DNA of 47,624 bases from Patescibacteria group bacterium (GCA_019752815.1 JAIELQ010000005.1:1-47624); one strand, 5' to 3'. Positions 6,927 to 40,341 are shown, numbered from the stretch's first letter. The notes: generated by a model from the letters alone, not told the origin. Numbers and translations are program-made.

Positions 6927-7050
6927 AGAAATTCCACTACACACTCATCTGCGTTGTTGCGACTGCGAAGTTAGACGTTCACCGTACAAGGAGTACGGCT
7001 CACGCCCAACTTCTTGCGCGCCTAGCATCTGAGCACGTATTGAAATTCCT
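6927..7050 (-). repeat. Palindromic element family A, copy 1 (after rpoC stop)
   Basis: Plus strand CATCTGCGTTGTTGC...TCA-CCGTAC-N5-GTACGG-CTCA...CGCCTAGCATCT within an imperfect long inverted repeat. Pairs best on the minus strand (G-T wobbles). Confidence 0.85.
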
Positions 7051-7086
7051 TTAATTGACGAAAGAGAGTAGTCGACAATTTAGAGA

Positions 7087-7123
7087 AAACAAAAACCGCC
7101 TTCGGCGGTTTTTGTTTGTTTTT
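7087..7123. terminator. Intrinsic terminator of rpoBC (bidirectional form)
   Basis: AAACAAAAACCGCC-TTC-GGCGGTTTTTGTTT hairpin with A and T tails. Confidence 0.85.
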
Positions 7124-7161
7124 AAAAAAGAAAAACCCGCACCATGTTACTGAGCGGGTTT
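7124..7161 (-). terminator. Terminator of the minus-strand orphan gene; near-duplicate at 10329-10368
   Basis: AAACCCGC...GCGGGTTT stem followed on the minus strand by TTCTTTTTT. Confidence 0.7.
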
Positions 7162-7182
7162 CGCTTAGTTTGGTGCGGGGGA

Positions 7183-7752
7183 TCAGTGCTTCTTGATGTC
7201 CGTGTCTTGCTCGACCGCCTGCTTCTTCGTCTCGTTCTGGGCCTCAGGGCTGAACAGAAACTCGACATCAAGACGGGGACGACCGTTGCCGAGATCGACA
7301 GCGACCGTGTACCGCTTTGTGACATCTTCGTATTTGATCCGTTGCCCATCGTCTTCGCCAAAACCAAAGCTCGATGGTGGAACTCGGTACGTGTGACCGA
7401 CATTGGTCGAGATTTCGATGGTTTTGCCATCTACTTCGGGGAAGATGTGCTTGATGATGGCGCCTACCACGAATGGCGAGATGTCTGCCCAGTCGAATGC
7501 ATCGCCGATCCCCACTGAAATCTCATACTGCGAGAGTGAACCGGAGCTGACACCTGGAATTTGCTCCAGCGCCTTGGATAGGGCGAGGGCAACAGCACCA
7601 GGTTTCTTTTTCTCGTCGAGCGACGAAAAAAAGTTGTCTTGGCCAAAGCCATAGTGTCGCACAGGGCACACGTCGCGAACGACGTGATATGAGCGACGGG
7701 TCGGGTTCGGATGCTGAACCATCTTGATGTGTGCTTTGATGTCGATGTCCAC
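7183..7752 (-). CDS. Hypothetical protein with Nfu/NifU N-terminal (scaffold)-like domain
   Basis: HPNP...LSKALEQIPGV...YEISVGIGDAFDWADI resembles Nfu_N. Start reassigned to GTG 7752, which has SD AAGGAG (ORF track start 7791). Confidence 0.6.
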   Translation of the reverse strand: MDIDIKAHIKMVQHPNPTRRSYHVVRDVCPVRHYGFGQDNFFSSLDEKKKPGAVALALSKALEQIPGVSSGSLSQYEISVGIGDAFDWADISPFVVGAIIKHIFPEVDGKTIEISTNVGHTYRVPPSSFGFGEDDGQRIKYEDVTKRYTVAVDLGNGRPRLDVEFLFSPEAQNETKKQAVEQDTDIKKH

Positions 7753-7796
7753 AGGCAATCTCCTTCTGTTGTATAGTGAACTAATGTTCATATAGT

Positions 7797-7824
7797 ATTA
7801 TACACAAAAAATAAAATAAGTCAA
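7797..7824 (-). promoter_or_regulatory. sigma70-type promoter
   Basis: TTGACT-N16-TATAAT on the minus strand. Confidence 0.7.
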
Positions 7825-7845
7825 TAGCTTACGATACTCCCAGCA

Positions 7846-7978
7846 ATCAAGTATACTAGTGGCAATCATGGCATCAGGGGACGCGGTACAGCAGATTAAG
7901 GATCGGCTCAATATTATTGATGTGATTTCACCGTATGCGGAGCTAGTAAATGAGCCCCACTTTGTTTCTTGCAACTGA
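7846..7978 (+). pseudogene. Duplicated dnaG 5' fragment with its -10 box (36-aa ORF 7868-7978)
   Basis: 7846-7944 matches 8514-8612 with 6 mismatches in 99 nt. Encodes MASGDAVQQIKDRLNIIDVISPYAEL, then diverges and stops. Confidence 0.9.
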
Positions 7979-8016
7979 TGATTTTATTGTTGGGCGGGTG
8001 GTAGAATTGGAGTAGT

Positions 8017-8406
8017 ATGAAAGACTTTAAACACTGGGTTGGCGTTAAGGAAAAACTCGATAGTTTACTTCATAAACCACCATTTGTGAGTGAGGGTGAT
8101 ATGTGGTGGGCGAGTATTGGTGAAAATGTCGGTTCGGAAATCGGTGGCAAAAGTGACCTGCACTCCAGACCGGTTATTATTTTGCGTAAGTTGTCCCATG
8201 GATTTTACTTTGTGATACCAACAACTACCAAAACCAAAGACGGTAGCTGGTATTTTTCCTTCACCCATGCTGAAAAAGTAACGACTGCCTGCCTTCACCA
8301 ATCAAGAGCAATCGACTATCGCCGACTGTCCTCAAAGTTAGGAACGTTAGCCGAACAAGATTTTGCAGATTTAAAGAGTGCGTTTAGAAATCTGTATAAA
8401 CTCTAA
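8017..8406 (+). CDS. PemK/MazF-family toxin (endoribonuclease), orphan
   Basis: GDMWWASIGENVGSEIGGK...RPVIIL...VIPTTT...QSRAIDYRRL, a typical MazF-fold signature. Confidence 0.88.
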   Translation: MKDFKHWVGVKEKLDSLLHKPPFVSEGDMWWASIGENVGSEIGGKSDLHSRPVIILRKLSHGFYFVIPTTTKTKDGSWYFSFTHAEKVTTACLHQSRAIDYRRLSSKLGTLAEQDFADLKSAFRNLYKL

Positions 8407-8457
8407 ACAATATTCCCCGCCTCTTGCGAGGCGGGGCCGCGGGAAAACCCCGAATGT
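8407..8457 (-). ncRNA. Candidate small antisense RNA convergent with the PemK toxin gene
   Basis: Lies downstream of a near-consensus minus-strand promoter. 9-bp GC stem with a GCAA (GNRA) loop on the minus strand (8415-8436) plus a small CGGG/CCCG hairpin. No ORF. Ends are inferred. Confidence 0.5.
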
Positions 8458-8463
8458 AAATAA

Positions 8464-8492
8464 AGTATAGCCAAATGGATAAAATATGTCAA
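8464..8492 (-). promoter_or_regulatory. Near-consensus sigma70 promoter firing antisense toward the toxin 3' end
   Basis: TTGACA (8492-8487), 17-nt spacer, TATACT (8469-8464). Confidence 0.8.
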
Positions 8493-8535
8493 TATTTTAC
8501 CTAAAATTGCTCCATCAGGTATACTACTAGCAATT

Positions 8536-10302
8536 ATGGCATCAGGGGACGCGGTTCAGCAGATTAAAGATCGGCTCAATATTATTGATGTGATTTCACC
8601 GTATGCGGAGCTGACAAAGTCGGGGCGGCATTTTGTGGCGCGGTGTCCATTCCATTCGGAAAAGTCACCATCATTCCATGTGTCACCAGAACGCGGCACC
8701 TATCACTGTTTTGGCTGTGGGGTGGGGGGAGATATTTTTTCGTTTATTCAAGCAATTGATGGAGTGGAATTCAAAGATGCACTCAAGACCCTCGCCGAAC
8801 GTGCGGGTGTTGAACTGGTGCCAGAAAACCCACAAAAGAAAACCGAACGCGATGAGTTGGTGGCCGTCATTGAAGCCGCTACAAGCTACTATGAGAATCA
8901 GCTACCTAACATGGTAGATGCGACAGCGTATTTAGAGCGTCGTGGTGTCACTAAAGAAACAATTAAAAAGTGGCGCATCGGGTATGCTCCGGGTCCGCCG
9001 CTTGCTGGCTGGCGCGAGCTCAAGACCCATTTGATTAACGAGAAGTTTTTACCGGGCACGATGTTAAAGGCCGGCCTAATTAAAAGTGCCGAAGGTGGCA
9101 AAGAACCATTTGATACATTTCGCGACCGTATTATGTTTCCACTGCGTGACCAGGCGGGGCGGGTAGTGGGTTTCTCGGGAAGGATATTGGCAAAAGATAC
9201 TGATGCGCCGAAATACGTGAATTCACCGGAAACTGAGCTCTACCACAAATCAGAATTACTGTACGGGTACGATATGGCGAAACACGGTATTCGTAATTTA
9301 GGTTTTTGGATTATTGTCGAAGGGCAGTTTGATGTGGTGATGAGTCACCAAGCAGGGTATACCAATACCGTCGCTGTTTCAGGGACCGCATTGACACTCC
9401 ATCATGTGCAGTTGCTGGAACGACTTTCAACCAAGGTCGTGCTCGCGCTTGATTCAGACAAAGCCGGAATTGCCGCCATGAAAAAATCTGCTGACCTCAT
9501 GCTACGGCGGGGGATTGATGTGAAAGTCGCTGCTATGCCTGATGGCGCCGATCCGGCTGATATGATTTTGGCTGACCCTAAATCATTTAAAACTGCTGTG
9601 GGACATGCGGTCCATATCATCGAATTTTTACTCGCGCATTTACGCAAAGAAAATGCCGATGACCGAGCGTATAAATTAAAAGCCACGGCCGAGGTGATGC
9701 CGTTTATCACCCTCATTCCTAATATGATTGACCGCGATCATTTTGAAGGCGTGACTGCAACAGCGCTTGGCACAACCAAAGACGCTGTACATGCTGAGGT
9801 GTTGCGGTTGCTTGAGGAACAAAAGCGCCAACCGGTGCAATACAAAGAAGTAACTGTAGAAAAAACACCTACCCCACAAAACGAAACTATGACCGCAATT
9901 TTACGCAAAGAGGGTACCCTCCATTATCTACTGGCTGCGCTGACTATTGTGCCTGAACCAGTGCGAGAAGTCTTGGAGCGAGAAATTGCGGTAATTGTGA
10001 GTCCCGAGGTATTAGAGAGTGAGCGCATAAATGGCAGCGCCCACATATCGAAACTGACCTTCCAAATCGAGCAATTTATCGAAAAAAGTAGTTACCGATT
10101 GCAAATTGAAGAGTTCACCCACAAGCTCAACCAATTGCACAAATTAACGGTAGAAGGGAAGTTGGCCCAAGAAAAAGCCCAATTGAAGGAGATTGAAAGT
10201 TCTGGACAAGGGGACACCATGCCGGTGTTGCTTCGAGTAAATGAGCTACGGCGACAACTCCAAGCTAATGAGTATCAAGTCTCAATATTTCCAAAGCTCT
10301 AA
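8536..10302 (+). CDS. dnaG: DNA primase
   Basis: CHC2 Zn finger (CPFH...CFGC), KYVNSPET, TOPRIM VEGQFDV and DSD. Confidence 0.98.
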   Translation: MASGDAVQQIKDRLNIIDVISPYAELTKSGRHFVARCPFHSEKSPSFHVSPERGTYHCFGCGVGGDIFSFIQAIDGVEFKDALKTLAERAGVELVPENPQKKTERDELVAVIEAATSYYENQLPNMVDATAYLERRGVTKETIKKWRIGYAPGPPLAGWRELKTHLINEKFLPGTMLKAGLIKSAEGGKEPFDTFRDRIMFPLRDQAGRVVGFSGRILAKDTDAPKYVNSPETELYHKSELLYGYDMAKHGIRNLGFWIIVEGQFDVVMSHQAGYTNTVAVSGTALTLHHVQLLERLSTKVVLALDSDKAGIAAMKKSADLMLRRGIDVKVAAMPDGADPADMILADPKSFKTAVGHAVHIIEFLLAHLRKENADDRAYKLKATAEVMPFITLIPNMIDRDHFEGVTATALGTTKDAVHAEVLRLLEEQKRQPVQYKEVTVEKTPTPQNETMTAILRKEGTLHYLLAALTIVPEPVREVLEREIAVIVSPEVLESERINGSAHISKLTFQIEQFIEKSSYRLQIEEFTHKLNQLHKLTVEGKLAQEKAQLKEIESSGQGDTMPVLLRVNELRRQLQANEYQVSIFPKL

Positions 10303-10328
10303 TTGTTTCTTTCTTAGTTAACTTTTTT

Positions 10329-10368
10329 AAAAAAGAAAATCCCGTAGCATGTTGCTGAGCGGGATTTT
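10329..10368 (-). terminator. Terminator of the minus-strand orphan gene
   Basis: AAAATCCCG...CGGGATTTT with a T tail on the minus strand. Same design and loop as 7124-7161. Confidence 0.7.
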
Positions 10369-10399
10369 AACAGGAAAACGGAGCGTCACTCGACGTCAC

Positions 10400-10738
10400 T
10401 TATTTCACAAAATTTTCTTCGATAAATTGGGTCATGCTGGAAAGAGCTGCGCTGTCTTTGTGAGGATGTTTTTGCTCAAGAACAACGTAATCAAAGGAAA
10501 TGACTATACTGAAATACTCACGTACTTCTCCTATGACTTCTTCGATCAACAGTACCATATAGGGGAGTGGCCTCTTTTTGGCGCCTTTCTTGTTGACATA
10601 AATGTGATGAAGTTGATTCAGACGCACGCCCTCACCAGCAAGTACCTCTTTGAGGCGAAGAGTCTCTTCACCCTTAGGTCCAAGTGCCTTCGCGCGACGT
10701 AAGGCATAATGGATGCTTTTAGTGGTCATCATTGGCAT
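10400..10738 (-). CDS. Hypothetical protein (orphan between dnaG and rpoD)
   Basis: 112-aa ORF with SD GGAG, an upstream TTGACT box and a downstream terminator. Confidence 0.65.
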   Translation of the reverse strand: MPMMTTKSIHYALRRAKALGPKGEETLRLKEVLAGEGVRLNQLHHIYVNKKGAKKRPLPYMVLLIEEVIGEVREYFSIVISFDYVVLEQKHPHKDSAALSSMTQFIEENFVK

Positions 10739-10891
10739 GGTGCTTTTCTCCAGCTCTAGTCGTTTACTGAGGCGTTTCTGTTAATGTTTATATAATAATG
10801 TAATACATTAGTCAATGAGTAGTATTTTTAGGGAAAACTACCCCGTAAACACTGGACATTTTCAAGTTTTTCTGTATAGTATCAGGTACCT

Positions 10892-12316: not shown

Positions 12317-12440
12317 GAGGAGCTTCCAAAACCCACGCATCTGCGGCGTTGTCACTTTCACTCAAGTCCTCACCGTACAAAAAGTACGGCTCGAACTTTC
12401 GCTCGGTGACACCTTGCATCTACCCACGTTTTGAAACCTC
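12317..12440 (-). repeat. Palindromic element family A, copy 2 (after rpoD stop)
   Basis: CATCTGCGGCGTTG...TCA-CCGTAC-AAAAA-GTACGG-CTC...CCTTGCATCT. Confidence 0.85.
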
Positions 12441-12463
12441 ATCGGAGACGGTGTAGTTCAGAA

Positions 12464-12494
12464 AAACAAAAACCGCCTCACGGGGCGGTTTTTG
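12464..12494. terminator. Intrinsic terminator of rpoD
   Basis: CAAAAACCGCC...GGCGGTTTTTG, same stem as the rpoC terminator. Confidence 0.8.
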
Positions 12495-12560
12495 ATTAAT
12501 TGTAAAAAAGAAAACCCCGGCGAACCGCTAGGGTTTCCGGAGTTGCTGAACCTGAAAAGA

Positions 12561-12755
12561 TCAGGTGAGCGTGGGGTAGTGCTTGTCGAGATCGGCGTCG
12601 ATTTCGGCGAGCAGAGCCTGTTCGGTTTCGGGACTGATGGGCGGCAGATTTGCCACGTCAGTCTCAAGAGTTTCTTCGTTCGCTTCGAACCGGTCGAACA
12701 AGTCACCCATCACGGTTGCGATTGCGTCAGAGGTTTCGGAATCAATCGTCTTCAT
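12561..12755 (-). CDS. Small acidic hypothetical protein (orphan)
   Basis: 64 aa. SD GGAG and promoter TTGACT-N17-TACTAT with TG extension. Confidence 0.65.
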   Translation of the reverse strand: MKTIDSETSDAIATVMGDLFDRFEANEETLETDVANLPPISPETEQALLAEIDADLDKHYPTLT

Positions 12756-12913
12756 TTTCTTGCTCCAAGTTGGTTATGCACTTTTACTATAGTAGCACAA
12801 ATAATTATAAAAGTCAATACAGTGTTATTGTAGATAAATTAATAGGTTAGAGCTATTCACTAAAAGAGTAATAAAGTGGTCGGTATTAGCTTGGGGTTTG
12901 TTACAATATCAAC

Positions 12914-13690
12914 ATGACGAACAAGTGGTTCTTTTTGTTGTTTATTTCTATCTATACGTTATGTACGGCACTGATTTTGGTGTGGGCCGATGCTTCGTTT
13001 TTGATCGTAACCGCACTGCTGTTTGGAGCACCGATTTTTGTGCTTTGGAATCGACTGCAGCTGAAATCCCATCTTGTGCCCTTGGTGGCCACCTTTACCT
13101 TGCTTACGACCGCCATTATTCAAATTTACGCTTATAAGAGTGGTTTGTGGTACGAACTGTCACCATTATCGTTTGCTGTGTTTGGCGGGGCACCCCTTGA
13201 AACCTACATCTTTTCGGTGCTTCATATTTTGTATTTGATACTCTTGTATGAGTACTTTTTTGACGACGGTACGAGCACAAAACGAACTAGTATTTCTCCG
13301 CGCGGACTAGGAATACTGGGTGTTATGTACGCATTGATTCTCGGTATTATTTACACTGACTCGACGATATTGGTGTCGTACCCGTTTGCGTTTTTGTTGG
13401 CGTTCATGAGTTCATTGTTTGCGGTGATGATACTAGTGCGCAAAAGTATGCCGCCACTAGCGTTGTTTAAAAAAGCGGGGTTGTTTGCTGTTGTCACGCT
13501 GCCACTGTCATTAATTTACGAATGGATACTCCTCGAAAACGGCATTCGCTTGTTTGCGAACGTAAACGAATATATTGGATATTTTGAATGGGACTATCAG
13601 GTGATCCCGGTTGAGCAGTTCCTCTTACTACTGATTGTACCGTTTGGGTTGGTGATGTTGTATGAAATGTATATTGACGACAGTCATTAG
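12914..13690 (+). CDS. Polytopic membrane protein, lycopene-cyclase-domain-like (two internal repeats)
   Basis: About 8 hydrophobic segments. Repeated GLWY...GAPLETY and GIRLF...VIPVEQF motifs. Confidence 0.55.
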   Translation: MTNKWFFLLFISIYTLCTALILVWADASFLIVTALLFGAPIFVLWNRLQLKSHLVPLVATFTLLTTAIIQIYAYKSGLWYELSPLSFAVFGGAPLETYIFSVLHILYLILLYEYFFDDGTSTKRTSISPRGLGILGVMYALILGIIYTDSTILVSYPFAFLLAFMSSLFAVMILVRKSMPPLALFKKAGLFAVVTLPLSLIYEWILLENGIRLFANVNEYIGYFEWDYQVIPVEQFLLLLIVPFGLVMLYEMYIDDSH

Positions 13691-13958
13691 AACTCCCAAA
13701 ACTGGTGAATGAAGAAACGAGTGAGAAATGCCAGGGCATTTCGCAAGAGGTTGCCAGCTATTTTGTAAAAATAGCGACAACCCGTACAGCTTCTGTAAGA
13801 AGTAGCGATTATTCTGAATTTATGTTGCTGGAAAATAAGGAGCTTGCGACTATATTTTCTGTATGCAGAGCCGAGATTTTTCCTCCTAAGGAAAATCGCT
13901 GGACCGCATTTCGTTGCTTTCTCACCCCTAGCACTGCACTCAGTTTTGGAAATTCTAA
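13687..13958. mobile_element. Composite MITE-like palindromic element (~270 bp)
   Basis: Terminal inverted repeats TTAGAACTCCCAAAACTG / CAGTTTTGGAAATTCTAA (16 of 18 match). Shares internal modules with the elements at 21101-21164 and 29496-29572. Confidence 0.65.
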
Positions 13959-13982
13959 AAAATTAAGAGGTCCGAGTACTGG

Positions 13983-20202: not shown

Positions 20203-21012
20203 ATGACTATTTTTGAGGCTATTATTCTTGGGCTCGTGCAGGGTGTAACAGAGTTTCTACCGATTTCGTCGTCGGGGCACCTCATTTTAATGCGCGATTT
20301 ACTTAATCTTGAAGTAGATGGAGCGCTTGCGTTTGATGCTGTCTTGCAACTAGCTACCGTATTGGCAGTAATATTGTATTTCCGTAATGATTTGTGGGTA
20401 TTAAGCCAAACAGCCCTTCGAAAGCTCGGACGCTTACCGGTTAATCAAAAAGACCTGACGTTACTCTATGCATTGCTGATTGGTACAGTCCCTGCAGTAG
20501 TTGTCGGTTTGTTTTTGGAGTCGACGATGGAGACATTGTTTAGGTCACCACTTTTGGTTGCGGGTGTGCTTGTTGTTGGTTCGTTTTTGTTTATTTACGC
20601 TGAGTGGGTTTACAGTAAAACTGTACCGCAAAATGAAATGACCATTAAAAAAGGTTTTCAGATCGGTTTGTTTCAGTGTCTGGCGTTAATCCCGGGAATG
20701 TCCAGATCAGGCGCTTCAATTGCCGGGGGTATGTTGCTCGGTCTCACTCGTGCCGAGGCGGCTCGCTTTTCGTTTCTCCTCGCGATTCCAATTCTCTTGG
20801 GTGCCGGTAGTAAAAAACTGATTGACTTGATTCAGATTGGGGGAGATGTGTCGTGGGGAGCACTTATTGTGGGGTCTCTTGTAGCATTTGGTACAGGATT
20901 GTTTGCTATTCATTTTTTACTACAGTTTGTAAGGCGGCATACCTTGTGGCCGTTTATTTGGTATCGGTTACTCCTCGCTTTATTCGTCGCCTACACCGTC
21001 CTTGTTGCTTAA
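20203..21012 (+). CDS. uppP: Undecaprenyl-diphosphate phosphatase (BacA)
   Basis: QGVTEFLPISSSGH and PGMSRSG. Start set to ATG 20203. Confidence 0.97.
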   Translation: MTIFEAIILGLVQGVTEFLPISSSGHLILMRDLLNLEVDGALAFDAVLQLATVLAVILYFRNDLWVLSQTALRKLGRLPVNQKDLTLLYALLIGTVPAVVVGLFLESTMETLFRSPLLVAGVLVVGSFLFIYAEWVYSKTVPQNEMTIKKGFQIGLFQCLALIPGMSRSGASIAGGMLLGLTRAEAARFSFLLAIPILLGAGSKKLIDLIQIGGDVSWGALIVGSLVAFGTGLFAIHFLLQFVRRHTLWPFIWYRLLLALFVAYTVLVA

Positions 21013-21213
21013 ACGTCTAAAATCACTTCATCTACTGCCTTACATTTCGATAAATAATCTTCACTGTACAAAAAGTACGGCTCACCTTATTTTTCTCGTC
21101 CTTCTTACAGAAGCTGTACAGGTTGTCGCTCTTTTTCCAAAAGAGCTGGCAACCTCTTGCGAAAGCGCCCCCACGCTTTCTCATCTTGTATCTATAGCAA
21201 TTTAAAACGTTTA
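21010..21213 (-). repeat. Palindromic element family A, copy 3 (composite, after uppP stop)
   Basis: TAAACGT...ACGTTTA ends, TCA-CTGTAC-AAAAA-GTACGG-CTCA core, plus an inserted 64-nt module shared with 13739-13802. Confidence 0.8.
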
Positions 21214-27073: not shown

Positions 27074-27074
27074 T

Positions 27075-27989
27075 ATGCAAAACCCAGAAAACAAAAAAAT
27101 GGCCGGTGGTTCTGTGGTGGATGAAATGCGAGGCGCGCAAGAACCTGCGACTGAGGCGTATCGCGCATACGACGAAGAGCAGGTGCGCAGCGGCAACAAA
27201 GCAGTTCGCCAGCACAGGACTACCGGAGTAAACTGGATAGGGTTGTATACGATGCTACGGAGGGAGGTTAAACGAACCCTGCGTGTATCGATTCAAACTC
27301 TCGCCGCGCCGGTTATTTCAGCTGCCTTGTATATTTTTATTTTTGGAACGGTGATTGGTACAAAAATTGATGACTTTGCGGGTGTGCCGTACATTTCGTT
27401 TGTGTTCCCGGGAGTCTTGATGCTCTCGATAATCAATGCCAGTTTTTCGAGTGCATCATCGGCGTTGTTCTTTATGAAGTTCACACGTGGGATTGAGGAA
27501 ATTTTAATCACGCCGTTTTCGTACCTCGAAATGTTAGTTGGGTTTGTGGGGAGTGCTGTGGCGCGGGCTATGATTGTGGCGTTCCTGATTCTGATTGTGG
27601 GAGTATTGTTTGGAGCAGTTACACTCACCAATCCACTCATGTTCATATTTTATGTTGCGGCTATTTCGGCTATCTTTGCGATGTTGGGAATTATCGTAGC
27701 CTTGTGGGCCGAGGGGTTTGAGCAGCTGCAGATGTTAAATACGTTTGTGATTACACCACTGACGTATCTTGGGGGTATCTTCTATTCGATTACCATGTTG
27801 CCTGCACTCGCCGCCCAAATTACGGTCCTTAATCCGTTCTTTTATTTTGCCGATGGTATTCGTGGCGCCATGATTGGCTACCATGAAGCTAATCAGCTTG
27901 TAGGCTTGGTAATTACCGTTGGTTTAGTTCTGGTTCTCGGCACCTTGGTAACACAGATATTTAAACGTGGTTGGAAAATCCGAGCATAG
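27075..27989 (+). CDS. ABC-2 permease (YadH-like) with N-terminal palindrome-derived insert
   Basis: Six-TM ABC-2 pattern (GGIFYSI...LNPFFY). Start set to ATG 27075. Confidence 0.93.
   Translation: MQNPENKKMAGGSVVDEMRGAQEPATEAYRAYDEEQVRSGNKAVRQHRTTGVNWIGLYTMLRREVKRTLRVSIQTLAAPVISAALYIFIFGTVIGTKIDDFAGVPYISFVFPGVLMLSIINASFSSASSALFFMKFTRGIEEILITPFSYLEMLVGFVGSAVARAMIVAFLILIVGVLFGAVTLTNPLMFIFYVAAISAIFAMLGIIVALWAEGFEQLQMLNTFVITPLTYLGGIFYSITMLPALAAQITVLNPFFYFADGIRGAMIGYHEANQLVGLVITVGLVLVLGTLVTQIFKRGWKIRA
27103..27226 (+). repeat. Palindromic element family A, copy 4, translated in frame
   Basis: Outer stem CCGGTGGTTCTGTG/CACAGGACTACCGG. TGCGAGGCGCGCAAGAA...GA-GGCGTAT...ATACGAC-GA...GCAACAAAGCAG matches the reverse complement of copy 1. 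Confidence 0.8.
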
Positions 27990-28106
27990 TAATCTAAAAA
28001 TCACCATCTGCGTTGTTGCTCGGTCGCTCGCTTTTCACCGTACAGATGTACGGCTCATACGCTCACTCGGTCGCGCCTAGCATCTTAGTGATTTTGTAGA
28101 ATACTA
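27987..28106 (-). repeat. Palindromic element family A, copy 5 (begins at the permease TAG)
   Basis: CATCTGCGTTGTTGC...TCA-CCGTAC-AGAT-GTACGG-CTCA...CGCGCCTAGCATCT, with TA at both ends. Confidence 0.88.
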
Positions 28107-29479: not shown

Positions 29480-29592
29480 GGGCACATCCAAAAATTGAAT
29501 GAAGAAATGAGCGTTGCGATTATTCTGAATTTATGTCCCGTTTTCCCTCCTAAGGAAAATCGCTGGACCGCAATCTCCTCAACTTTTTGTGA
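29477..29592. repeat. Palindromic element related to 13687-13958 (after aldolase stop)
   Basis: Shares TGAATGAAGAAA, GCGATTATTCTGAATTTATGT and CCTCCTAAGGAAAATCGCTGGACCGCA with the 13.7-kb element. Confidence 0.8.
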
Positions 29593-29626
29593 ACGAGGTT
29601 CTGCGACTTGGAGGTTTTAAAATGAC

Positions 29627-31320: not shown

Positions 31321-31321
31321 T

Positions 31322-32740: not shown

Positions 32741-32746
32741 TTCTTT

Positions 32747-33160: not shown

Positions 33161-33163
33161 AAT

Positions 33164-35134
33164 ATGGCGCGCGCACTTACTCTTGGAAACGGCAACATGC
33201 TGGTTGGTATTGATTATCGCGGACAAGTGCGCGACTTGTATTGGCCGTATGTCGGACAAACCAATCATGTTAGTGGCGCCAGTGGCAGCTTCGTTCACCG
33301 CATCGGCGTGTATGTCGAAGATACTATGTACTGGCTTGATGATGCCAGTTGGGATATTACGATTGGTGCTGTCGGAGACAGTGTGCTCGGTAACTTCACC
33401 GCCGTACATCAAACAGCCCAGGTGACACTCTCGAGTAAAGATGCCGTACATAACGAGCATGATGTGTTTATTCGTCAGTTTACGCTTGTTAACAATAGTG
33501 AAGAGCCGCGTGAACTTAAACTTTTTTTAGCACAACAATTTCGGATTGGTGAATCCAGGCGAGGAGACACAGCATTTTATGATCCTCGTGTTGGTGCGAT
33601 TATTCACTACAAAGGTGATGATACGTTTTTAATTAATGCGACCCAAAATGGAAAACAATTTACCGAATTTACGATTGGACTGTTTGGTATTGAAGGTCGT
33701 GAGGGTGCTTACCATGATGCCTATGATGGTGTTTTAGAAAAAAATCCAATTGAACATGGATCAGTAGATTCTATTATAGGCTTTACCGCGCAACTAGACG
33801 CCGGAGAAAGTAGTGATATTTCCTACTGGATTGCTGCGGGGGAGTCAATCCCAAAAACCCATACCCTGGATGCCTTTGTGATTGAGGAAACACCAGAGCG
33901 GTTGCGGGCTTCAACTGATGCCTATTGGCGAGCCTGGCTTACCAAAGACGGTCGTGACATCTCTGCATTATCGCAATCACTTCAAACATTGTACCGACGA
34001 TCATTGGCCACGATTCGTGTTCATACTGATAACCGCGGAGGAATTATCGCCAGTAGTGACACTGATATGTTGCATCATGGACGAGATACATACAGTTACG
34101 TCTGGCCCCGTGACGGTGCATTAATCGCGCACGCACTTGATCAAACTGGATACAACGAGGTGGCCGAACGATTCTTTTCGTTTATGTCCAAGTGCCAAGA
34201 GCCAGCTGGGTATTTAATGCATAAATATTTAACGGACGGTTCGTTAGGTAGTTCGTGGCACCCATGGCTCCAAAATGGGCAAGCCTATTTACCGATTCAA
34301 GAAGATGAGACAGCGAGCGTGTTGTTTATGCTGTGGCGACATTATGAACTAACCAAAGATTTAGAGTTTATCGAAGGTCTCTATAATTCATTTATCGAAC
34401 CAGCTGCTAAATTTATGTGTGAGTATATTGAACCGCTCACAGGACTGCCCTCAGCATCATTTGATTTATGGGAAGAGAAATACGGTACTTCAACCTACAC
34501 CGCAGCGTCTGTATACGGGGGACTGATGGCAGCGATGCGATTTGCGAGTTTGCTCGGTAAAGATAACGATGCGCGTACTTGGCAGGTTGTTGCCTCACGC
34601 ATGCAGAAGGCCATTGTAGGGGTGCTGTATGATCCTGATATAAAAATGTTTGTAAAGCACGTGACGCATACCGAAGATGGGGAATTAGTGTTTGATCGTA
34701 CAATTGATACTAGTAGTTTCCATGGAGTGGTATTTTTTGAGGTGTTAGAACCGGACGATGCACTCGTCAAGACTTCACTTAAAACGATTGAAAAAGTATT
34801 ACAAGTAGAGGGTAGTAGCAAAGGCTTTATTCGCTACCAACATGATCGCTACTATACGATGCAAGAAGCTGGCAGTCCAAACCCGTGGGTTATCTGTACA
34901 CTCTGGATTGCACAGTACTATATCCGGATTGCTAAAAAAGCAGCTGACTTGAAACCAGCTATGGAACTACTTGAATGGACCGCATCACACGCTTCACCAT
35001 CAGGAACGTTGTCTGAGCAAATGCATCCGCATACGCGCGAGCATTTGTCGACGTCGCCTTTAATCTGGAGTCATGCCGAATATGTTTTGACAGTCGACCT
35101 TTACCTGCGCAAGGTACAATCGTTTGCCAAGTAG
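33164..35134 (+). CDS. GH15 glucoamylase-family glycoside hydrolase
   Basis: GNGNML, YSYVWPRDG, QEDET, DLWEE, LSEQ, PLIWSHA. Confidence 0.93.
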   Translation: MARALTLGNGNMLVGIDYRGQVRDLYWPYVGQTNHVSGASGSFVHRIGVYVEDTMYWLDDASWDITIGAVGDSVLGNFTAVHQTAQVTLSSKDAVHNEHDVFIRQFTLVNNSEEPRELKLFLAQQFRIGESRRGDTAFYDPRVGAIIHYKGDDTFLINATQNGKQFTEFTIGLFGIEGREGAYHDAYDGVLEKNPIEHGSVDSIIGFTAQLDAGESSDISYWIAAGESIPKTHTLDAFVIEETPERLRASTDAYWRAWLTKDGRDISALSQSLQTLYRRSLATIRVHTDNRGGIIASSDTDMLHHGRDTYSYVWPRDGALIAHALDQTGYNEVAERFFSFMSKCQEPAGYLMHKYLTDGSLGSSWHPWLQNGQAYLPIQEDETASVLFMLWRHYELTKDLEFIEGLYNSFIEPAAKFMCEYIEPLTGLPSASFDLWEEKYGTSTYTAASVYGGLMAAMRFASLLGKDNDARTWQVVASRMQKAIVGVLYDPDIKMFVKHVTHTEDGELVFDRTIDTSSFHGVVFFEVLEPDDALVKTSLKTIEKVLQVEGSSKGFIRYQHDRYYTMQEAGSPNPWVICTLWIAQYYIRIAKKAADLKPAMELLEWTASHASPSGTLSEQMHPHTREHLSTSPLIWSHAEYVLTVDLYLRKVQSFAK

Positions 35135-35253
35135 TAACGAAAAAATACTCCATCTACGTTGTTGCTGCTCGCACTCAAGCATTCAATGTGCAAAAAGCAC
35201 ACCTCATGCTTTCGCACTCACGCGCCTAGTATCTGAAGCATTTTATCGTCACT
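35132..35253 (-). repeat. Palindromic element family A, copy 6 (begins at the GH15 TAG)
   Basis: CATCTACGTTGTTGC...TCAA-TGTGC-AAAAA-GCACA-CCTCA...CGCGCCTAGTATCT. The core stem sequence differs but pairing is kept. Confidence 0.82.
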
Positions 35254-35271
35254 TCAGAGTATTCTTTAAGC

Positions 35272-36090: not shown

Positions 36091-36106
36091 AATTTCTACT
36101 CTAACA

Positions 36107-36193
36107 TTTAGCCCGTTAGAAGTACAAATGTAAATTATTTAAATTTTTTAGGTATCATTTAGTTGTCTTGGAGATAACTTCTAACGGGCTAAA
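36107..36193. mobile_element. 87-bp MITE-like element with perfect 17-bp terminal inverted repeats
   Basis: TTTAGCCCGTTAGAAGT / ACTTCTAACGGGCTAAA around an AT-rich spacer. Confidence 0.65.
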
Positions 36194-36244
36194 AAGGAAA
36201 GAGCCGGACAAAAGAATGCCGGCTCCTGTATGCGACCTGTGACC

Positions 36245-36571
36245 TCAAGAGGTCGGTGCATCATTGCACTGAGGTTTGAATTCGTCAAAACGAATCCATT
36301 CCCCGTTGTAGTAAATGCGCTCGTTCCCGTCTTCATCCTCGACATATGAATCGAGCAGGGGATTGTCCTCGGTGACGAGCTTCACGAACACCTGCGATCC
36401 ACTGCATGACACAACTTGCCACGGGAAGTCTTCCATGAAGTCGATATCATCCGGGTTCACCGTGGTGAAGTTGTGAATGACTTCTGCTTCAGTGCATGTG
36501 CACAGAGCTTCTTGGGCAGTCGCGTTGGTGGCGAAAGCGATAACGAGAAGTGCTGCAACGAAAAGTTTCAT
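36245..36571 (-). CDS. Secreted acidic hypothetical protein (orphan, 4 Cys)
   Basis: Signal peptide MKLFVAALLVIAFATNATA. Promoter TTGATT-N17-TACTAT, SD-like GAGG/AGGA, downstream hairpin. Confidence 0.75.
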   Translation of the reverse strand: MKLFVAALLVIAFATNATAQEALCTCTEAEVIHNFTTVNPDDIDFMEDFPWQVVSCSGSQVFVKLVTEDNPLLDSYVEDEDGNERIYYNGEWIRFDEFKPQCNDAPTS

Positions 36572-36680
36572 TTTCCTGTCCTCGTAACTGGCTGGTCGAG
36601 CGTTGGTGCCGACCTTGTCCAGTTACTATAGTACCATAGATTTATGTAAAAATCAAGTACTGGAGGATAAAATCTATAAC

Positions 36681-37658
36681 TTAGGCCATATTTTCTTCAT
36701 CCTGCGCGTCTTCCTCGTCTTCGATTTCAGACTGAATAATTTCTTCGATAATGTCTTCAAGAGACAACACACCAATGGCTTCACCAGAGCTTTTTTCTAC
36801 AATCGCAATGTGTTGTTTCTTTTTAAGCATGCGGGCGAGCACGGTATCGAGGTAGGCACTGCCTTTGAGGCGCATAATGTTGGTATCAAAAGCCTCTTCG
36901 GTTTGTTTGATAGAAATATTTTCGTCTTCAGTCAGGAGATCTTTGGCAAAGAGTACACCAACTACATTAGTTTTGTTGCCACTATAGATGGGGAATCGAG
37001 AATAGCCCTGTTCAGAAACTTCATTAAAAAACTGATCGTTCAAACGTTGGTTTTCATCAAACATGGCTACGTTTTCAATGGGGGTCATTACTTCACGAAC
37101 TTGCCGGTGTGAAAACTGCAGAGCACCATGCACAATACGTTCCTCATCTGCATCGATTGGACTGTGTTCTGAATCTTCATGTTCAGAAATAATCTGCATG
37201 ATCTCGTGTTTGGAATACATCGCTGGGGTAGCGTGACCGAGTAATCGATCGAGTGTATATGCCACCGGGAAGGCAACTGGATAGCCAATAAACATAAGTG
37301 CCCGAGTAAGTGGTGCTAGCGCACTCCCAAATTTGAGTGCATGTCGTGAAAACAATGCCTGGGGACCAATTTCACCAAAAATAAAAATAAGGGCAGTGGC
37401 CATAAAACTCGCCATAACACCACTTGCCAAAGAACCAAGAAATACTGAAAGAATGGTATTAACGGTGACGTTGCCTAATAGTAGGGTGGTAAGTAGTAAA
37501 TTACCTCGTGCTCGTAGTGGATAGATGGCGATAGCTTGTGGGTCACCGGTGTTGGCACGACGACGCAGTGAAGCGAGATCAAGCGAGAAATACGCCAAAG
37601 TCAGCCCGGAGAAAATCGCCGAACAGACAATAAGAAACAGTGAAATTATTAGGGTCAC
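36681..37658 (-). CDS. CNNM/CorC-family (DUF21 + CBS) membrane protein
   Basis: FSGLTL, LLTTLLLGNV, IFGEIGPQA, YSRFPIY, LEDIIEEII. Confidence 0.92.
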   Translation of the reverse strand: MTLIISLFLIVCSAIFSGLTLAYFSLDLASLRRRANTGDPQAIAIYPLRARGNLLLTTLLLGNVTVNTILSVFLGSLASGVMASFMATALIFIFGEIGPQALFSRHALKFGSALAPLTRALMFIGYPVAFPVAYTLDRLLGHATPAMYSKHEIMQIISEHEDSEHSPIDADEERIVHGALQFSHRQVREVMTPIENVAMFDENQRLNDQFFNEVSEQGYSRFPIYSGNKTNVVGVLFAKDLLTEDENISIKQTEEAFDTNIMRLKGSAYLDTVLARMLKKKQHIAIVEKSSGEAIGVLSLEDIIEEIIQSEIEDEEDAQDEENMA

Positions 37659-37667
37659 GATAGGGGA

Positions 37668-37748
37668 TTAGATAGGTTCACCACCTAGGAATGAGTTCAC
37701 GATAAGCAGAAGCACAAAGCCTGCGAGCACGAGAATAAGAAATTTCAT
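37668..37748 (-). CDS. Putative 26-aa single-TM peptide, absent from ORF track
   Basis: MKFLILVLAGFVLLLIVNSFLGGEPI. Extended -10 TGGTATTGT lies 9 nt before the ATG. Ends 9 nt before the CNNM start. Confidence 0.55.
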   Translation of the reverse strand: MKFLILVLAGFVLLLIVNSFLGGEPI

Positions 37749-37787
37749 ATAACTCATACAATACCACATTTTCCCGTATCGTAAACA

Positions 37788-37818
37788 AAAACAACCTCCC
37801 GTGAGGGAGGTTGTTTTT
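37788..37818. terminator. Terminator hairpin, direct-repeat copy 1
   Basis: AAAACAACCTCCCGTGAGGGAGGTTGTTTTT. Confidence 0.85.
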
Positions 37819-37842
37819 GTTATAAATCATTGCGACCATTAG

Positions 37843-38538
37843 TTACATAATCTTAGCTCCTTTTTCCAGATTGTGACGAGCGCATAATAGTTGAATATTT
37901 TTTGCGTCATCACTGCGCCCACCCTTAGAGTAAGGTAATACGTGGTCATAGTGTAAGCCGTCACCAGCACCACAGGTGGTACATTTGCCGCCGTCGCGTT
38001 TCCATACTTCAACTTTGACATGTGCTGGTATCATCCGTTCGTGAGTATATTCAAAAATTTTATCAGGGTTTTGTGCACTGACCTGTTTTGGATGTAAGTG
38101 GAAGGTGAAGACTTTTCTGTTTCCGCGCACAATGATTTCCGCATTTAATAATTCAAACAAACCTTTGTCGTACCAAATACCAGGCATCAATTTTTCATAT
38201 ACTTGAATTTCGAGCGGTGTAGTTCGTTCACTGTTTTTATATCGTTCAGACTCTCGGAAAAATTTACCATTATCAGTCAAGGTGCTTCCGCTAGAGTACA
38301 TCGGTTGATCAATTTCTTTGCGTTTGTCTCCAGCGCCATACACATCATGACCCTCATAAATTAATATTTGTTTTTCTTCATCCCACACATCTGCGTAGGG
38401 TGCATTATCTTTAACCGACATCAAGAAGACAGATGGTCGACTATCTTTTCTAAAATTCATTCCTTTTTGCAAATGAGCCTTTTCTTTGATTACCAATTCG
38501 AGGTACGAAATGATTTGGGTAGAATTACGATTATCCAT
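37843..38538 (-). CDS. HNH endonuclease with N-terminal putative SRA-like domain
   Basis: C-terminal CTTC...HYDHVLPYSKGG...NIQLLCARHN. N-terminal PYAD...IYEG resembles SRA-type folds (inference). Confidence 0.85.
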   Translation of the reverse strand: MDNRNSTQIISYLELVIKEKAHLQKGMNFRKDSRPSVFLMSVKDNAPYADVWDEEKQILIYEGHDVYGAGDKRKEIDQPMYSSGSTLTDNGKFFRESERYKNSERTTPLEIQVYEKLMPGIWYDKGLFELLNAEIIVRGNRKVFTFHLHPKQVSAQNPDKIFEYTHERMIPAHVKVEVWKRDGGKCTTCGAGDGLHYDHVLPYSKGGRSDDAKNIQLLCARHNLEKGAKIM

Positions 38539-38623
38539 GTTTGCAGCTTATCACGTTAGATATTTTATTGCAGCAAAGTTTAAAGTTGTTGAGTAAGAGC
38601 CGTATATCTTCAATAGCAAACAC

Positions 38624-38654
38624 AAAACAACCTCCCGTGAGGGAGGTTGTTTTT
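38624..38654. terminator. Terminator hairpin, direct-repeat copy 2 (DEAD-box gene terminator)
   Basis: Identical 31-mer to 37788-37818. Confidence 0.85.
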
Positions 38655-38675
38655 TAATCAACTAAGTTACTGAAA

Positions 38676-38791
38676 GGTTTCAAAAATAGATGGATTCCTA
38701 GGCGATGGAGTAAAATATTTGGAGACGTATTTTTATACGGCGGAAAATATTTTGCGAACAGCAACAACGGAAGGCGCTATTTTTGGAGACT
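38676..38791 (+). repeat. Palindromic element family A, copy 7 (after DEAD-box stop)
   Basis: CTAGGCG...GAGACGTAT-TTTT-ATACGGCGGA...GCAACAACG within GTTTCAAAAATAG/CTATTTTTGGAGAC ends. Confidence 0.75.
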
Positions 38792-38795
38792 GATA

Positions 38796-40199
38796 TTATT
38801 TAGTGACGAACGTAAGAGCCATCCCTTTCTGATCAGCCCGTCCCGTTCGGCCGATGCGGTGCACATAATCTTCGTAGGCATTTGGAAGGTCGTAGTTGAT
38901 AACGTGTGAGACGTTGTCTACGTGAATACCGCGGGCTGCCACGTCGGTTGCTACCAGCACTTGTACGCGACCAGTTTTAAAGTTCTGGAGAGCACGTTGA
39001 CGTTGTGGGTGACTCTTGTTTCCGTGAATCGCGTCGGCTTTGATACCAGCACGAGACAGTTCCTGTGAGAGCTTTTCTACACTGTGCTTCATGGCGCCGA
39101 AGATAATCACGCGAGTAAAGTCAGGTTTTTTAAGAAGGGCAGTGAGCGTGTCGAACTTGGTGTGTGGTTCGTAGTACACCACGTCTTGGGTGATACTGCC
39201 GGTAATATCTTTTTTACGAACTGAAACCGTAATTGGGTCATTCATAAATTCATGAATCAAACCTTTTACCGTGTCAGACATTGTGGCAGAGAAGAATAGA
39301 GTTTCGTGTGGGTCTGGCACGTCTTTCAAAATTGCGCGCATGTCATGGATGAATCCCATGTCGAGCATCCGGTCAGCTTCGTCGAGGATGATAGTTGAGA
39401 ATCCGGCAGGTTTAATGTGACCACGGTCAATCAAGTCTTGCACACGTCCTGGAGTACCAATAATGAAATGGTTCTGACGTTTAAGTCCCATGATTTGAGG
39501 ACGGATGTTCATACCACCTACACAAACGGTTGAAAAGATTTTCATCTTCTCAGTTAACTTTTTAAGTTCTTGTTCAACCTGAATTGCAAGTTCGCGCGTT
39601 GGGGCTAGTACTAATGTCTGTCGATTGTATTGCTTGAGGGTTTTGTTGATAGTTGGGATAAGAAACGCAGCTGTTTTTCCTGTACCAGTTTGTGCGAGTC
39701 CTACAACATCACGACCATCCATTATGTGCGGGATGATTTGATCTTGAATCGGTGATGGAATTGTGAGACCCATGTTGGTAATCGTGGTAACAAGCGGTTG
39801 CTCGAGACCAAAGGTTTTGAAGGTGTGAGTGGCCTTGTACACTTCTTCGGTCGCACTCGTATCTACCGGGTTAAGGTTGATGTATTTTGAAACGTCAAAG
39901 GTTTGCATTTTGCGTCCACCACGTCCGCCGCCAGAACGACCACTTGATCCACGACCACTACCACTTGAAAATGGGCGACGGCCTTGGCGTTGTGCCGGGC
40001 TAGAAAAACTACGTGCATGACCATTACCAGAGCGGTCAGTTGATGGAGCTGAGTATGAACGACGAGCGCCACCCGAGGCACTTTCGCCTCGACTAGCGTT
40101 ACTACTAAAACGACGTGCTCCTCCAGCTGCATGTCCACCAGTGCGGGGACGACTAGAAAAAGCGGGTTTCCGACTAGGTCGGCTTGTTGATGAATACAT
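38796..40199 (-). CDS. DEAD-box RNA helicase (RhlE/CshA-like) with Arg/Gly/Ser-rich N-terminus
   Basis: AQTGTGKT, PTRELA, DEAD, SAT, HRIGRTGR. Confidence 0.97.
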   Translation of the reverse strand: MYSSTSRPSRKPAFSSRPRTGGHAAGGARRFSSNASRGESASGGARRSYSAPSTDRSGNGHARSFSSPAQRQGRRPFSSGSGRGSSGRSGGGRGGRKMQTFDVSKYINLNPVDTSATEEVYKATHTFKTFGLEQPLVTTITNMGLTIPSPIQDQIIPHIMDGRDVVGLAQTGTGKTAAFLIPTINKTLKQYNRQTLVLAPTRELAIQVEQELKKLTEKMKIFSTVCVGGMNIRPQIMGLKRQNHFIIGTPGRVQDLIDRGHIKPAGFSTIILDEADRMLDMGFIHDMRAILKDVPDPHETLFFSATMSDTVKGLIHEFMNDPITVSVRKKDITGSITQDVVYYEPHTKFDTLTALLKKPDFTRVIIFGAMKHSVEKLSQELSRAGIKADAIHGNKSHPQRQRALQNFKTGRVQVLVATDVAARGIHVDNVSHVINYDLPNAYEDYVHRIGRTGRADQKGMALTFVTK

Positions 40200-40222
40200 A
40201 TATTAGAATAATCTCAGTTAGA

Positions 40223-40341
40223 GACCAAGGTAAACGAGGGCAGTTCTAGGCGTGGAAGTTAATTTTTCTTGAGCCGTACTTTTCGTACGGTGAGAAAAAA
40301 TTAACGCACCACAACAACGAAATGCGCCGTTTACGTTGGTC
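40223..40341 (+). repeat. Palindromic element family A, copy 8 (in the DEAD-box 5' leader)
   Basis: CTAGGCG...TGAG-CCGTAC-TTTTC-GTACGG-TGA...CAACAACG within GACCAA/TTGGTC ends. Confidence 0.82.

Follow-up and report, generated by a model that had tools for sequence, protein, structure and literature searches.

In the window, the 47,624-nucleotide (nt) stretch of DNA from a Patescibacteria group bacterium analysed here at its full length (GCA_019752815.1 JAIELQ010000005.1:1-47624), we describe R1, a family of hairpin-forming repeats that sit at stop codons and fold best on the strand antisense to the gene they are docked to. R1 is a structured repeat family spanning several phyla; it duplicates slowly, swaps central tiers between its copies and turns over at gene ends, by gain as well as by loss. 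We read it as a long-lived, non-autonomous palindromic-repeat replicator which would be moved or read by a putative trans-acting enzyme, a reading to which we assign a probability of roughly 0.45.

Precisely, R1 is represented by a covariance model built from seven full-length copies of the window, with copy 3, a composite, being excluded. When this model was run against every position of the window, it returned seven full-length matches at 79-109 bits and one partial match (26 bits) inside 21010-21213, all the remaining matches having E >= 0.13. The eight elements that had been marked in an earlier note, made from the sequence alone, are all present at their places, seven as full-length copies and one (21010-21213) with a nested module. 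To that note we add an order-wide test against the Y1 transposase family, an analysis of mosaic copies and model-based matches in other phyla.

Structure and strand asymmetry of the R1 hairpin

Seen on its folding strand, R1 is one hairpin of about 121 nt. The outermost stem, of about 10 base pairs (bp), is different at every site and usually includes the stop codon. Inside it there are a tier made of an A-run and a T-run and then a symmetric internal loop with AGATG on both arms, which gives tandem G-A pairs. The next tier inward is an asymmetric loop, typically TAGG opposite AACAAC with variants in the subfamilies, followed by an A/U-rich middle stem, and the apex consists of a second tandem G-A beside a conserved G-U pair and then of the apical stem-loop. 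The apical G-U pair is kept in 30/37 sequences from the genome that holds the window (G000) and 20 other genomes. Both tandem G-A sites which had been noticed in the window (CAGATGC...GCAGATG and TGAGCC...GGTGAA) are there, as are the apical stems CCGTAC/GTACGG, TGTGC/GCACA and CGTAT/ATACG.

The seven full-length window copies share short conserved blocks and a common single long hairpin, with stem sequences that differ from copy to copy. RNAalifold, applied to these seven copies, predicted 39 pairs, 32 of them with compensatory changes. Covariation was also measured in two larger alignments. In the 37 sequences from G000 and the 20 other genomes, 93.1% of the cells were paired vs 62.0% in shuffled alignments, and 35 of the 39 pairs showed double changes; in 47 distinct cross-phylum sequences, which we picked from Patescibacteria, Rokubacteria, Acidoferrum, Treponema-labelled and Gammaproteobacteria-labelled metagenome-assembled genome (MAG) loci, the corresponding values were 92.1%, 62.1% and 37 of 39. 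Both alignments were fitted to the R1 model, which favours that model; for both, 0/500 shuffles reached the observed values and slid controls were 32-41% paired. The compensatory changes in the window copies, together with the covariation in both larger alignments, bear out the proposal that it is structure, and not sequence, that is selected.

The folding strand was the more stable one in 71/71 copies of the genome (mean -48.7 vs -33.8 kcal/mol), and likewise in 8/8 window copies, as the earlier note had it. The helices of the folding strand of the 71 copies contain 301 G-U pairs vs 8 A-C 1x1 mismatches. The fold is one-sided because the opposite strand turns the G-U pairs into C-A mismatches and the G-A tandems into U-C/C-U. 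An undirected decay of palindromes would give near-equal numbers of G-U and A-C and, we infer, the usual deamination biases would favour the opposite skew.

Docking at stop codons in the whole genome

G000 is 1.04 Mb long, in 22 contigs, and is 99.97% complete with a contamination estimate of 2.12%. We ran the R1 model over this genome and obtained 82 matches at E <= 1, 71 of which, at >= 45 bits, were counted as copies. As gene set we used our own calls based on open reading frames (ORFs), a crude set consisting of 952 genes and covering 85% of the genome. We considered as docked any copy in which the 3' end of the folding strand was <= 12 nt from the stop codon of a gene on the opposite strand.

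According to this definition, 57/71 copies were docked, vs 4.3 +/- 2.0 expected (maximum 13) from 2000 random placements and orientations in non-coding DNA. Since all 71 copies fold better on that strand, the strand specificity of the fold, and its antisense position relative to the docked gene, extend well beyond the window copies for which this had been claimed. Most docking offsets fall into two groups, -5 to +4 and 11 nt inside the element, and a single copy has a stop at its other end too. In 40/57 docked copies the helix pairs two or more of the three bases of the stop codon. The stops of the docked genes were 32 TAA, 23 TAG and 2 TGA (624, 229 and 93, respectively, genome-wide), TAG being enriched and TGA depleted (p = 0.007).

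R1 is mostly extragenic, with 2/71 copies overlapping a called gene by >30 nt. The copies can sit on or replace the last codons without harm because the gene-side arm has stop codons in two frames, and elements can in fact supply the last codons of the host gene together with its stop (RpoC tail and GH15 tail in the relative G023). The canonical terminator, where present, lies downstream of the element, which is therefore part of the 3' untranslated region (UTR) of the gene.

Orientation with respect to genes and replication

On contig C1 the GC skew is positive over 0-170 kb, so we considered this region as one replichore. Of the copies within it, 15 point one way and 6 the other, and every one is antisense to its own gene. 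The orientation bias is therefore tied to transcription, as had been suggested: on this replichore the copies follow the gene and not the replichore, and a replication-linked orientation was rejected because both orientations (15/6) occur within one replichore.

The gene that comes after the docked copies was co-directional in 40 cases and convergent in 17, the genome baseline being 695 vs 242. An insulator placed between convergent genes was rejected as well, because there was no enrichment (17/57 docked copies vs 242/937 gene ends). For 70 copies, the upstream 80 nt were searched for a promoter of the folding strand; they showed no positional signal, and matches resembling TATAAT were equal on both strands. 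The stop-bearing arm cannot explain the orientation rule either, because the palindromic outer stem offers the same stops either way; on this reasoning we discarded it.

Turnover, mosaicism and age of the copies

Occupancy of orthologous gene ends was found to vary. The rpoC stop bears R1 in 5/30 loci of the genus; the empty sites, which the earlier note had advised to look for, consist of the stop, then 5-30 nt, then an intrinsic terminator. G023, the closest relative, shares R1 at 4/5 window sites along a syntenic block of 19 kb. The 23 loci from four other relatives (G001, G007, G010 and G019) gave no R1 match, and the readable stops of these genomes were either empty or occupied by another repeat (in G001 stops were readable at 2/5 sites).

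The copies are also mosaic. At the GH15 stop, G023 has a copy with 91% likeness to copy 5 of the window, although the latter is docked to a different gene. The rpoC copy of contig C19 is closer to the sigma-70 copy (78%) than to its positional counterpart (65%), despite flanks that are 90% identical. At the aldolase stop the same outer stem is present in G000 and G023 with different cores, namely that of another repeat family, B, in G000 and an R1 core in G023. Over 2,485 pairs of G000 copies the identity of the outermost stem was unrelated to that of the core (r = 0.06), and close pairs of copies show sharp, nested identity boundaries, with either the whole core or the central tier alone being shared. 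One of these boundaries, judged by eye, falls inside the AGATG motif.

Since site occupancy differs between species and the copies are mosaic, the family duplicates and recombines. Within one genome the copies are on average 55-61% identical and nearly all intact; R1 is therefore old and rarely duplicating, with central segments being exchanged and the shape being kept. The earlier suggestion of a non-autonomous mobile element is consistent with the variable orthologous sites, with the near-identical cores at different genes, with one nested copy and with one in-frame copy. A TA target duplication, which TA at both ends of some copies had hinted at, found no support: the third base of the old stop after the distal TA was a purine in 7/14 cases (by eye).

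As a side observation, rpoB-rpoC is present a second time in the assembly, on contig C19 (7.6 kb), with 90.0% identity to C1:1-6921 over 6,922 nt; this stretch probably comes from a co-binned relative.

Distribution among genomes and phyla

For the other genomes we used a match threshold of E <= 1e-5, and the copy counts given for them are lower bounds or are taken from the top matches. R1 was found in 36 of the 40 other genomes sampled in the genus (range 0-61 matches per genome), in 45/150 other genomes of the order (38/130 other genera) and in 6/150 other sampled genomes of the phylum. We examined the best locus in each of 18 other genomes: an ORF of >= 90 open codons ends antisense at the 3' end of the folding strand in 12/18, vs 0/18 in the mirror-image control, in which the opposite orientation was considered for the same loci. 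The docking rule is kept in all three genomes of the phylum-wide draw that lie outside the order.

A scan of species-representative genomes with the apical motif (18 fixed bases, 596 Gb, hence, by our arithmetic, about 50 chance matches expected) gave at least 117 loci, and the R1 model, run over 80 listed loci, gave 66 matches. Among the matches listed there are full-length ones in MAGs labelled Rokuibacteriota (at 88 bits), Acidoferrum (at 84 and 78 bits), Treponema (at 79.5 bits) and Gammaproteobacteria (at 48 bits), and weak ones (23-38 bits) in Myxococcota and several Burkholderiales, the phylum labels of these distant relatives being those of the record titles. The Rokubacteria and Acidoferrum copies have the same AGATG and apical motifs in a context of 65-70% GC, and the weak betaproteobacterial matches read GTAG where AGATG stands elsewhere. 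Whole-genome copy counts in genomes of other phyla were 11, 14, 4 and 5, and a Janthinobacterium genome had 3 weak matches.

When the other-phylum copies were taken with 600-nt flanks, the folding strand was the more stable one in 29/29. Docking judged by open frames alone is unreliable in GC-rich genomes, and it was redone with longer flanks and with the GC content at third codon positions (GC3). A high-GC3 ORF was docked antisense in 7/11 Rokubacteria and 7/11 Acidoferrum copies; three Acidoferrum copies had ORF ends on both sides, and docking in the opposite sense only was seen for 2 Rokubacteria and 1-2 Acidoferrum copies.

Relation to known repeat families

There was no window match at the gathering score in Rfam 15, so that the Rfam comparison proposed by the earlier note points to no family there, and a relaxed Rfam search of two copies returned chance-level matches to eukaryotic families alone. 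A blastn search of R1 against E. coli genomes, phages and PLSDB plasmids gave no match; E. coli genomes carry both ERIC and repetitive extragenic palindromic (REP) sequences. The apical motif had 0 matches in viral contigs. The literature searched, supplements not opened, contained no description of the R1 family or of its motif strings.

ERIC/IRU, Correia (CREE), BOX/RUP and bcr1-type repeats are imperfect palindromes of about 100-160 nt which lie in transcribed intergenic DNA, sometimes within genes, and have orientation-dependent effects on mRNA. R1 resembles them as an imperfect palindrome of similar size in transcribed intergenic DNA and, sometimes, inside a gene. Unlike ERIC, Correia and elements like miniature inverted-repeat transposable elements, or MITEs, it has neither conserved terminal inverted repeats nor a supported TA duplication nor a parent insertion sequence (IS), and its stems covary instead of being near-identical. 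A MITE of a DDE transposon was accordingly rejected, as the ends of R1 differ between copies, the TA duplication is unsupported (by eye) and DDE_3 was not found in 5 genomes. An element derived from IS200/IS605 (PATE) was rejected too, given that the 15/6 orientations in one C1 replichore match the genes and that G000 has no TnpB. Rickettsia palindromic elements (RPE), repeats of about 100-150 nt that are palindromic as well, can be located within a gene and in its reading frame; R1 copy 4 does the same, but an intragenic position is exceptional for R1 (2/71), this comparison being one of features and not of sequences.

REP- and REPIN-type repeats are the closest known kind to R1, which nevertheless lacks the defining features of both. 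REPs tagged with GTAG or CGTC are described as palindromes of 20-40 bp that are found mostly downstream of genes, between unidirectional or convergent ORFs; GTAG REPs frequently provide a TAG stop with their ends, their units combine into larger folds and some lie within ORFs (Di Nocera et al. 2013, PMC3733652). R1 is likewise interspersed, extragenic and downstream of ORFs, has the stop in its terminus, combines units and is in some cases intragenic, and its weak betaproteobacterial relatives have GTAG in the place of AGATG. Unlike these REPs, R1 is a 121-nt hairpin with conserved internal loops and variable stems, and its repeated motif is AGATG in Patescibacteria, Rokubacteria and Acidoferrum, with no GTAG tag in Patescibacteria. 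It differs from them also in its strict antisense strand asymmetry, in its single orientation relative to genes and in an architecture that is common to several phyla.

REPINs, which consist of two inverted REP palindromes around a variable spacer, are described as long-lived hairpin repeats of about 100 nt that duplicate slowly, are inherited vertically and are tied to a single-copy Y1 gene, the REP-associated tyrosine transposase or RAYT (Bertels and Rainey; 10.1101/2021.07.10.451892). R1 shares with them the hairpin, the size of about 100 nt, the extragenic position, the slow duplication, the vertical inheritance and the long life, and G000 has a single-copy Y1 gene with which, within the genus, the copy number of R1 goes along. 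The arms of R1, in contrast, are not inverted REPs, its conserved and variable parts are swapped with respect to a REPIN, Y1 genes are not flanked by R1, and there are copy-rich genomes without Y1.

A proposed replicator moved or read in trans

The fold is kept intact on the strand antisense to the docked gene, and the selected form would therefore be an antisense-polarity single strand, either single-stranded DNA (ssDNA) or an antisense transcript. A putative factor acting in trans may read R1 through its two conserved loops, and it might cut or exchange strands at AGATG, as the breakpoints seen at that motif suggest.

The window itself encodes no mobilising enzyme, in agreement with the earlier note: no transposase or integrase family was found among its 41 ORFs searched against Pfam. 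The best candidate, although a weakened one, is a Y1/HUH enzyme. The sole gene of this kind in G000 (C1:193380-194000) encodes a protein of 207 amino acids (aa) that scores 31 bits against Pfam Y1_Tnp, where the cut-off is 23. In NCBIfam it matches the REP-associated tyrosine transposase alone, at 35 bits (cut-off 80), and its HUH motif aligns to that of ISDra2 TnpA. Y1 homologues are present in 21/40 genomes of the genus, with a median of 13 R1 copies in genomes with the gene vs 4 in those without it (Mann-Whitney p = 3.6e-4, uncorrected for kinship), and all 8 other genomes of the genus with >= 24 copies have a Y1 homologue.

Several results weigh against reading R1 as a replicator of this kind. 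In the order, the presence of Y1 is unrelated to that of R1 (29/16 vs 61/44; odds ratio 1.3, p = 0.59), and the Y1 family is found in 5/12 genomes with >= 10 matches and is absent from the other 7. The copy-rich genomes G128, G129, G061, G161 and G159 (93-100% complete) contained no Y1 homologue. In the 35 best copies of these five genomes, which as top-scoring copies bias the measures of the fold upward but not that of docking, the fold is kept in 33/35, with 119 G-U vs 11, and docking is found in 27/35; a reverse transcriptase is present in 2/5 of these genomes. As for the RAYT, IS200/IS605 and IS630 transposases which the earlier note had proposed to look for beside the copies, around 19 Y1 loci (+/-1.5 kb) there was 1 strong R1 match and none beside the G000 gene, the TnpB domain was not found in G000, and the IS110 and IS630 (DDE_3; 5 genomes) families were not found in the genomes checked. 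Nor were there excision footprints, as hairpins with a CATCT or AGATG loop were no commoner than those with six control pentamers. Copies that are 55-61% identical and yet almost perfectly paired look like the product of per-site selection and not of a recent spread. An ssDNA transposon of the IS200/IS605 type should follow the replichore, and R1 copies follow the gene instead. Finally, both single-stranded forms considered above are ones that we infer.

As a separate observation, G000 has a single reverse transcriptase (383 aa, C6:29774-30361, locus L044), which from its motif we take to be of the diversity-generating retroelement type.

If R1 is what we propose, about 6% of the called genes (57/952), including rpoC and the sigma-70 gene, end inside a conserved, uncatalogued structure, and this structure is met again in Patescibacteria, Rokubacteria, Acidobacteriota and, going by the labels in the record titles, a Treponema MAG. 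R1 would be a clean natural case of a helix built for one strand only, and it would make it testable whether REP-like repeats are parasites or serve their host. The R1 model could be used for annotating the elements and for flagging recombination-prone sequence that breaks MAG assemblies; it can also correct gene ends, because the repeat supplies several C-termini and stop codons.

Alternative explanations

The alternative that survives best, possible but in our judgement rather unlikely, is that R1 is a gene-end structure of benefit to the host. A hairpin formed in antisense RNA that enters the gene from its 3' side would cause the transcript to be stopped, marked for cleavage (e.g. by RNase III) or trapped, and the copies would be kept by selection at each site; the sense mRNA would be spared because the tandem G-A and G-U pairs make the mRNA copy much weaker. 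That orientation follows transcription and not replication is in keeping with such a role, as are a fold kept in nearly all copies despite their divergence, also in genomes without Y1, and an architecture and docking that persist across phyla. Copy 8 of the window and its G023 counterpart at that site share 93% identity, as against 74-79% for the flanking matches there, and this too would fit selection on site. Against this role, no conserved promoter signal was found upstream of the folding strand, convergent pairs are not enriched (17/57 docked vs 242/937), and the full hairpin is not followed by a U-tract on the folding strand. Gene-end occupancy, moreover, differs between close species, and 4/40 genomes of the genus are without a copy.

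Rho is the usual suppressor of antisense transcripts. Its RNA-binding domain (PF07497) had no match over the cut-off in 151/151 sampled genomes of the order, the same search being positive in 9/14 control genomes, and this absence fits the host-benefit reading. It does not, however, separate carriers of R1 from non-carriers, and Rho was rejected as a discriminator since none of the 151 genomes has a match. In its broadest form, to which we give a similarly limited chance, this alternative makes R1 not selfish at all, but a very old, multi-phylum gene-end signal that acts only as an antisense-polarity single strand and is read by a conserved host factor. R1 would then cap the stop codon and might act on antisense RNA polymerase, on antisense RNA or on the exposed template strand. 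If so, it could be the main guard against antisense transcription in Rho-less Patescibacteria.

A classical REPIN-RAYT system seems to us improbable. The 207-aa Y1/HUH protein would bind the folded strand, cut it at AGATG (GTAG in Betaproteobacteria) and copy the element, and the Pfam and NCBIfam matches of this protein, its HUH alignment to ISDra2 TnpA and the Y1 homologue borne by each of the 8 other copy-rich genomes (>= 24 copies) of the genus all go in this direction. TAG, which termini of GTAG REPs supply as a stop (PMC3733652), makes up 23/57 stops of docked genes vs 229/946 overall. On the other side, the NCBIfam score of 35 is far under the cut-off of 80, the association with Y1 does not extend to the order, some copy-rich genomes have no Y1, and the Y1 genes are not flanked by R1. 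The arms of R1 are not small palindromes as REPs are, and R1 is conserved inside and variable outside, the reverse of a REPIN (10.1101/2021.07.10.451892).

Still less probable is an element of the 3' UTR that works on the sense strand, as REP, ERIC and Correia repeats do. In this case the mRNA hairpin would protect the 3' end, end transcription or tune termination at the enclosed stop, and the antisense bias would be a by-product. The copies do come after the stop codon and ahead of the intrinsic terminator, which makes them part of the gene's transcript, the stop codon is within the helix, and the sense strand still folds at about -34 kcal/mol. The G-U pairs and tandem G-A that are kept, however, become C-A and U-C/C-U mismatches in the mRNA (301 vs 8; 71/71 copies), a skew opposite to the one that known mutation biases would presumably give, and a run of >= 5 T within 80 nt downstream is found in just 26/70 copies.

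Integron attC sites, which a tyrosine recombinase uses in folded form, as bottom strands, and which mark the 3' end of movable genes, resemble R1 in that structure is conserved over sequence and in a fold antisense to the cassette gene whose stop codon they abut, and R1 cores are swapped within a kept outer stem, but we consider this analogy as very improbable, because R1 is docked to core genes on both strands (rpoC, sigma-70, UppP) and not to cassette arrays, its ends have no RYYYAAC/GTTRRRY core sites (by eye), and no integrase was found in the window, IntI not having been searched for genome-wide.

R1 copies in the window

Coordinates are those of the whole stretch. Copy 1 (6927-7049; folding strand minus; 108.8 bits) has a minimum free energy (MFE) of -59.3 kcal/mol vs -31.7 kcal/mol for the other strand; it starts 1 nt past the rpoC stop (TAG), and two terminator-like hairpins lie downstream of it. 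Copy 2 (12319-12440; folding strand minus; 102.8 bits) starts 2 nt past the stop (TAA) of the sigma-70 gene, which was named by Pfam. Copy 3 (21010-21213; folding strand minus) is a composite whose R1 start is at the UppP/BacA stop (TAA) and whose partial model match spans 21044-21099; a module of roughly 85 nt, here called M, is inserted in the 3' internal loop of R1 (boundary judged by eye).

Copy 4 (27105-27225; folding strand plus; 97.8 bits) is the exception, since its folding strand is the sense strand. It is in frame within the 5' end of an ABC-2 permease ORF, at a site between two genes of an ABC operon, with translation open throughout, and this site is empty in the relatives G007, G010 and G019. 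An in-frame insertion of R1 within a gene can thus survive. In the region 27076-27300, copy 4 would add about 50 hydrophilic residues to the N-terminus of the permease.

Copy 5 (27987-28105 or 27988-28104, depending on the model run; folding strand minus; 77.5-79.4 bits) overlaps the ABC-2 permease stop (TAG) by 2 nt, and its core is 85-92% identical to copies that are at other sites in G023. Copy 6 (35132-35253; folding strand minus; 109.5 bits) overlaps the stop (TAG) of a GH15 glycosidase gene by 3 nt. Copy 7 (38674-38793; folding strand plus; 97.1 bits) is 2 nt from the stop (TAA) of a DEAD-box helicase gene on the minus strand and has an orthologous copy in G023, with 69% identity. Copy 8 (40222-40343; folding strand plus; 100 bits) is not docked at a stop and lies in a divergent region, 22 nt upstream of the helicase start. 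The abutment on stop codons that had been reported for six of the copies is therefore that of the rpoC, sigma-70, UppP/BacA, ABC-2 permease, GH15 and DEAD-box helicase genes.

Hairpins made of an A-run, a GC-rich stem and a T-run, similar to terminators, are found at 37788-37818, 38624-38654, 7087-7120 and 12464-12497, two of the 31-nt copies being identical; they follow R1 copies and separate convergent genes. At 135 nt from R1 copy 7 there is an ORF of 231 aa (37843-38538) whose C-terminal part is an HNH endonuclease domain.

Other stop-docked elements and side observations

A further composite element, which the earlier note had missed, was recognised at 13691-13958 (no strand assigned) from its sequence, inverted repeat and fold. 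It begins at the stop of the gene 12914-13690; its outer stem and 3' motif are R1-like, and joined to them are a family-B module and module M. The second family-B element of the window (29483-29605; no strand assigned) starts at the aldolase stop, and its MFE values of -23.2 vs -27.4 give no strand asymmetry.

Family B, whose opening is AATGAAGAAAYGAGCG, likewise starts at stop codons (13691-13958 and 29483-29605) and is a module of several hairpins that shows no strand asymmetry; one found in G001 is nested within an R1 element at the asymmetric loop. Module M, which contains CTTCTTACAGAAGCTG, has two copies in the window, 21101-21164 and 13739-13802, that are 94% complementary, i.e. mutually inverted. 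It is found nested in elements of both R1 and B, whichever its orientation, and further instances follow stop codons in G001, G007 and G048. A third stop-docked family, C, opens with AATGAGCC or AATAAGCC, has a conserved CCGTGAG hairpin and was seen in G007 (loci L186 and L190) after three consecutive stop codons. In G007 it occupies gene ends that bear R1 in G000, so that this position is contested by several small elements of unrelated kinds. The comparison of folds on the two strands revealed no asymmetry in families B and C.

The dnaG region has its initial 99 nt in two copies (7846-7944 and 8514-8612, 94% identical) around an ORF (8017-8406) for a PemK/MazF-like toxin, an arrangement that resembles the insertion of a toxin-antitoxin cassette which duplicated the 5' end of dnaG.

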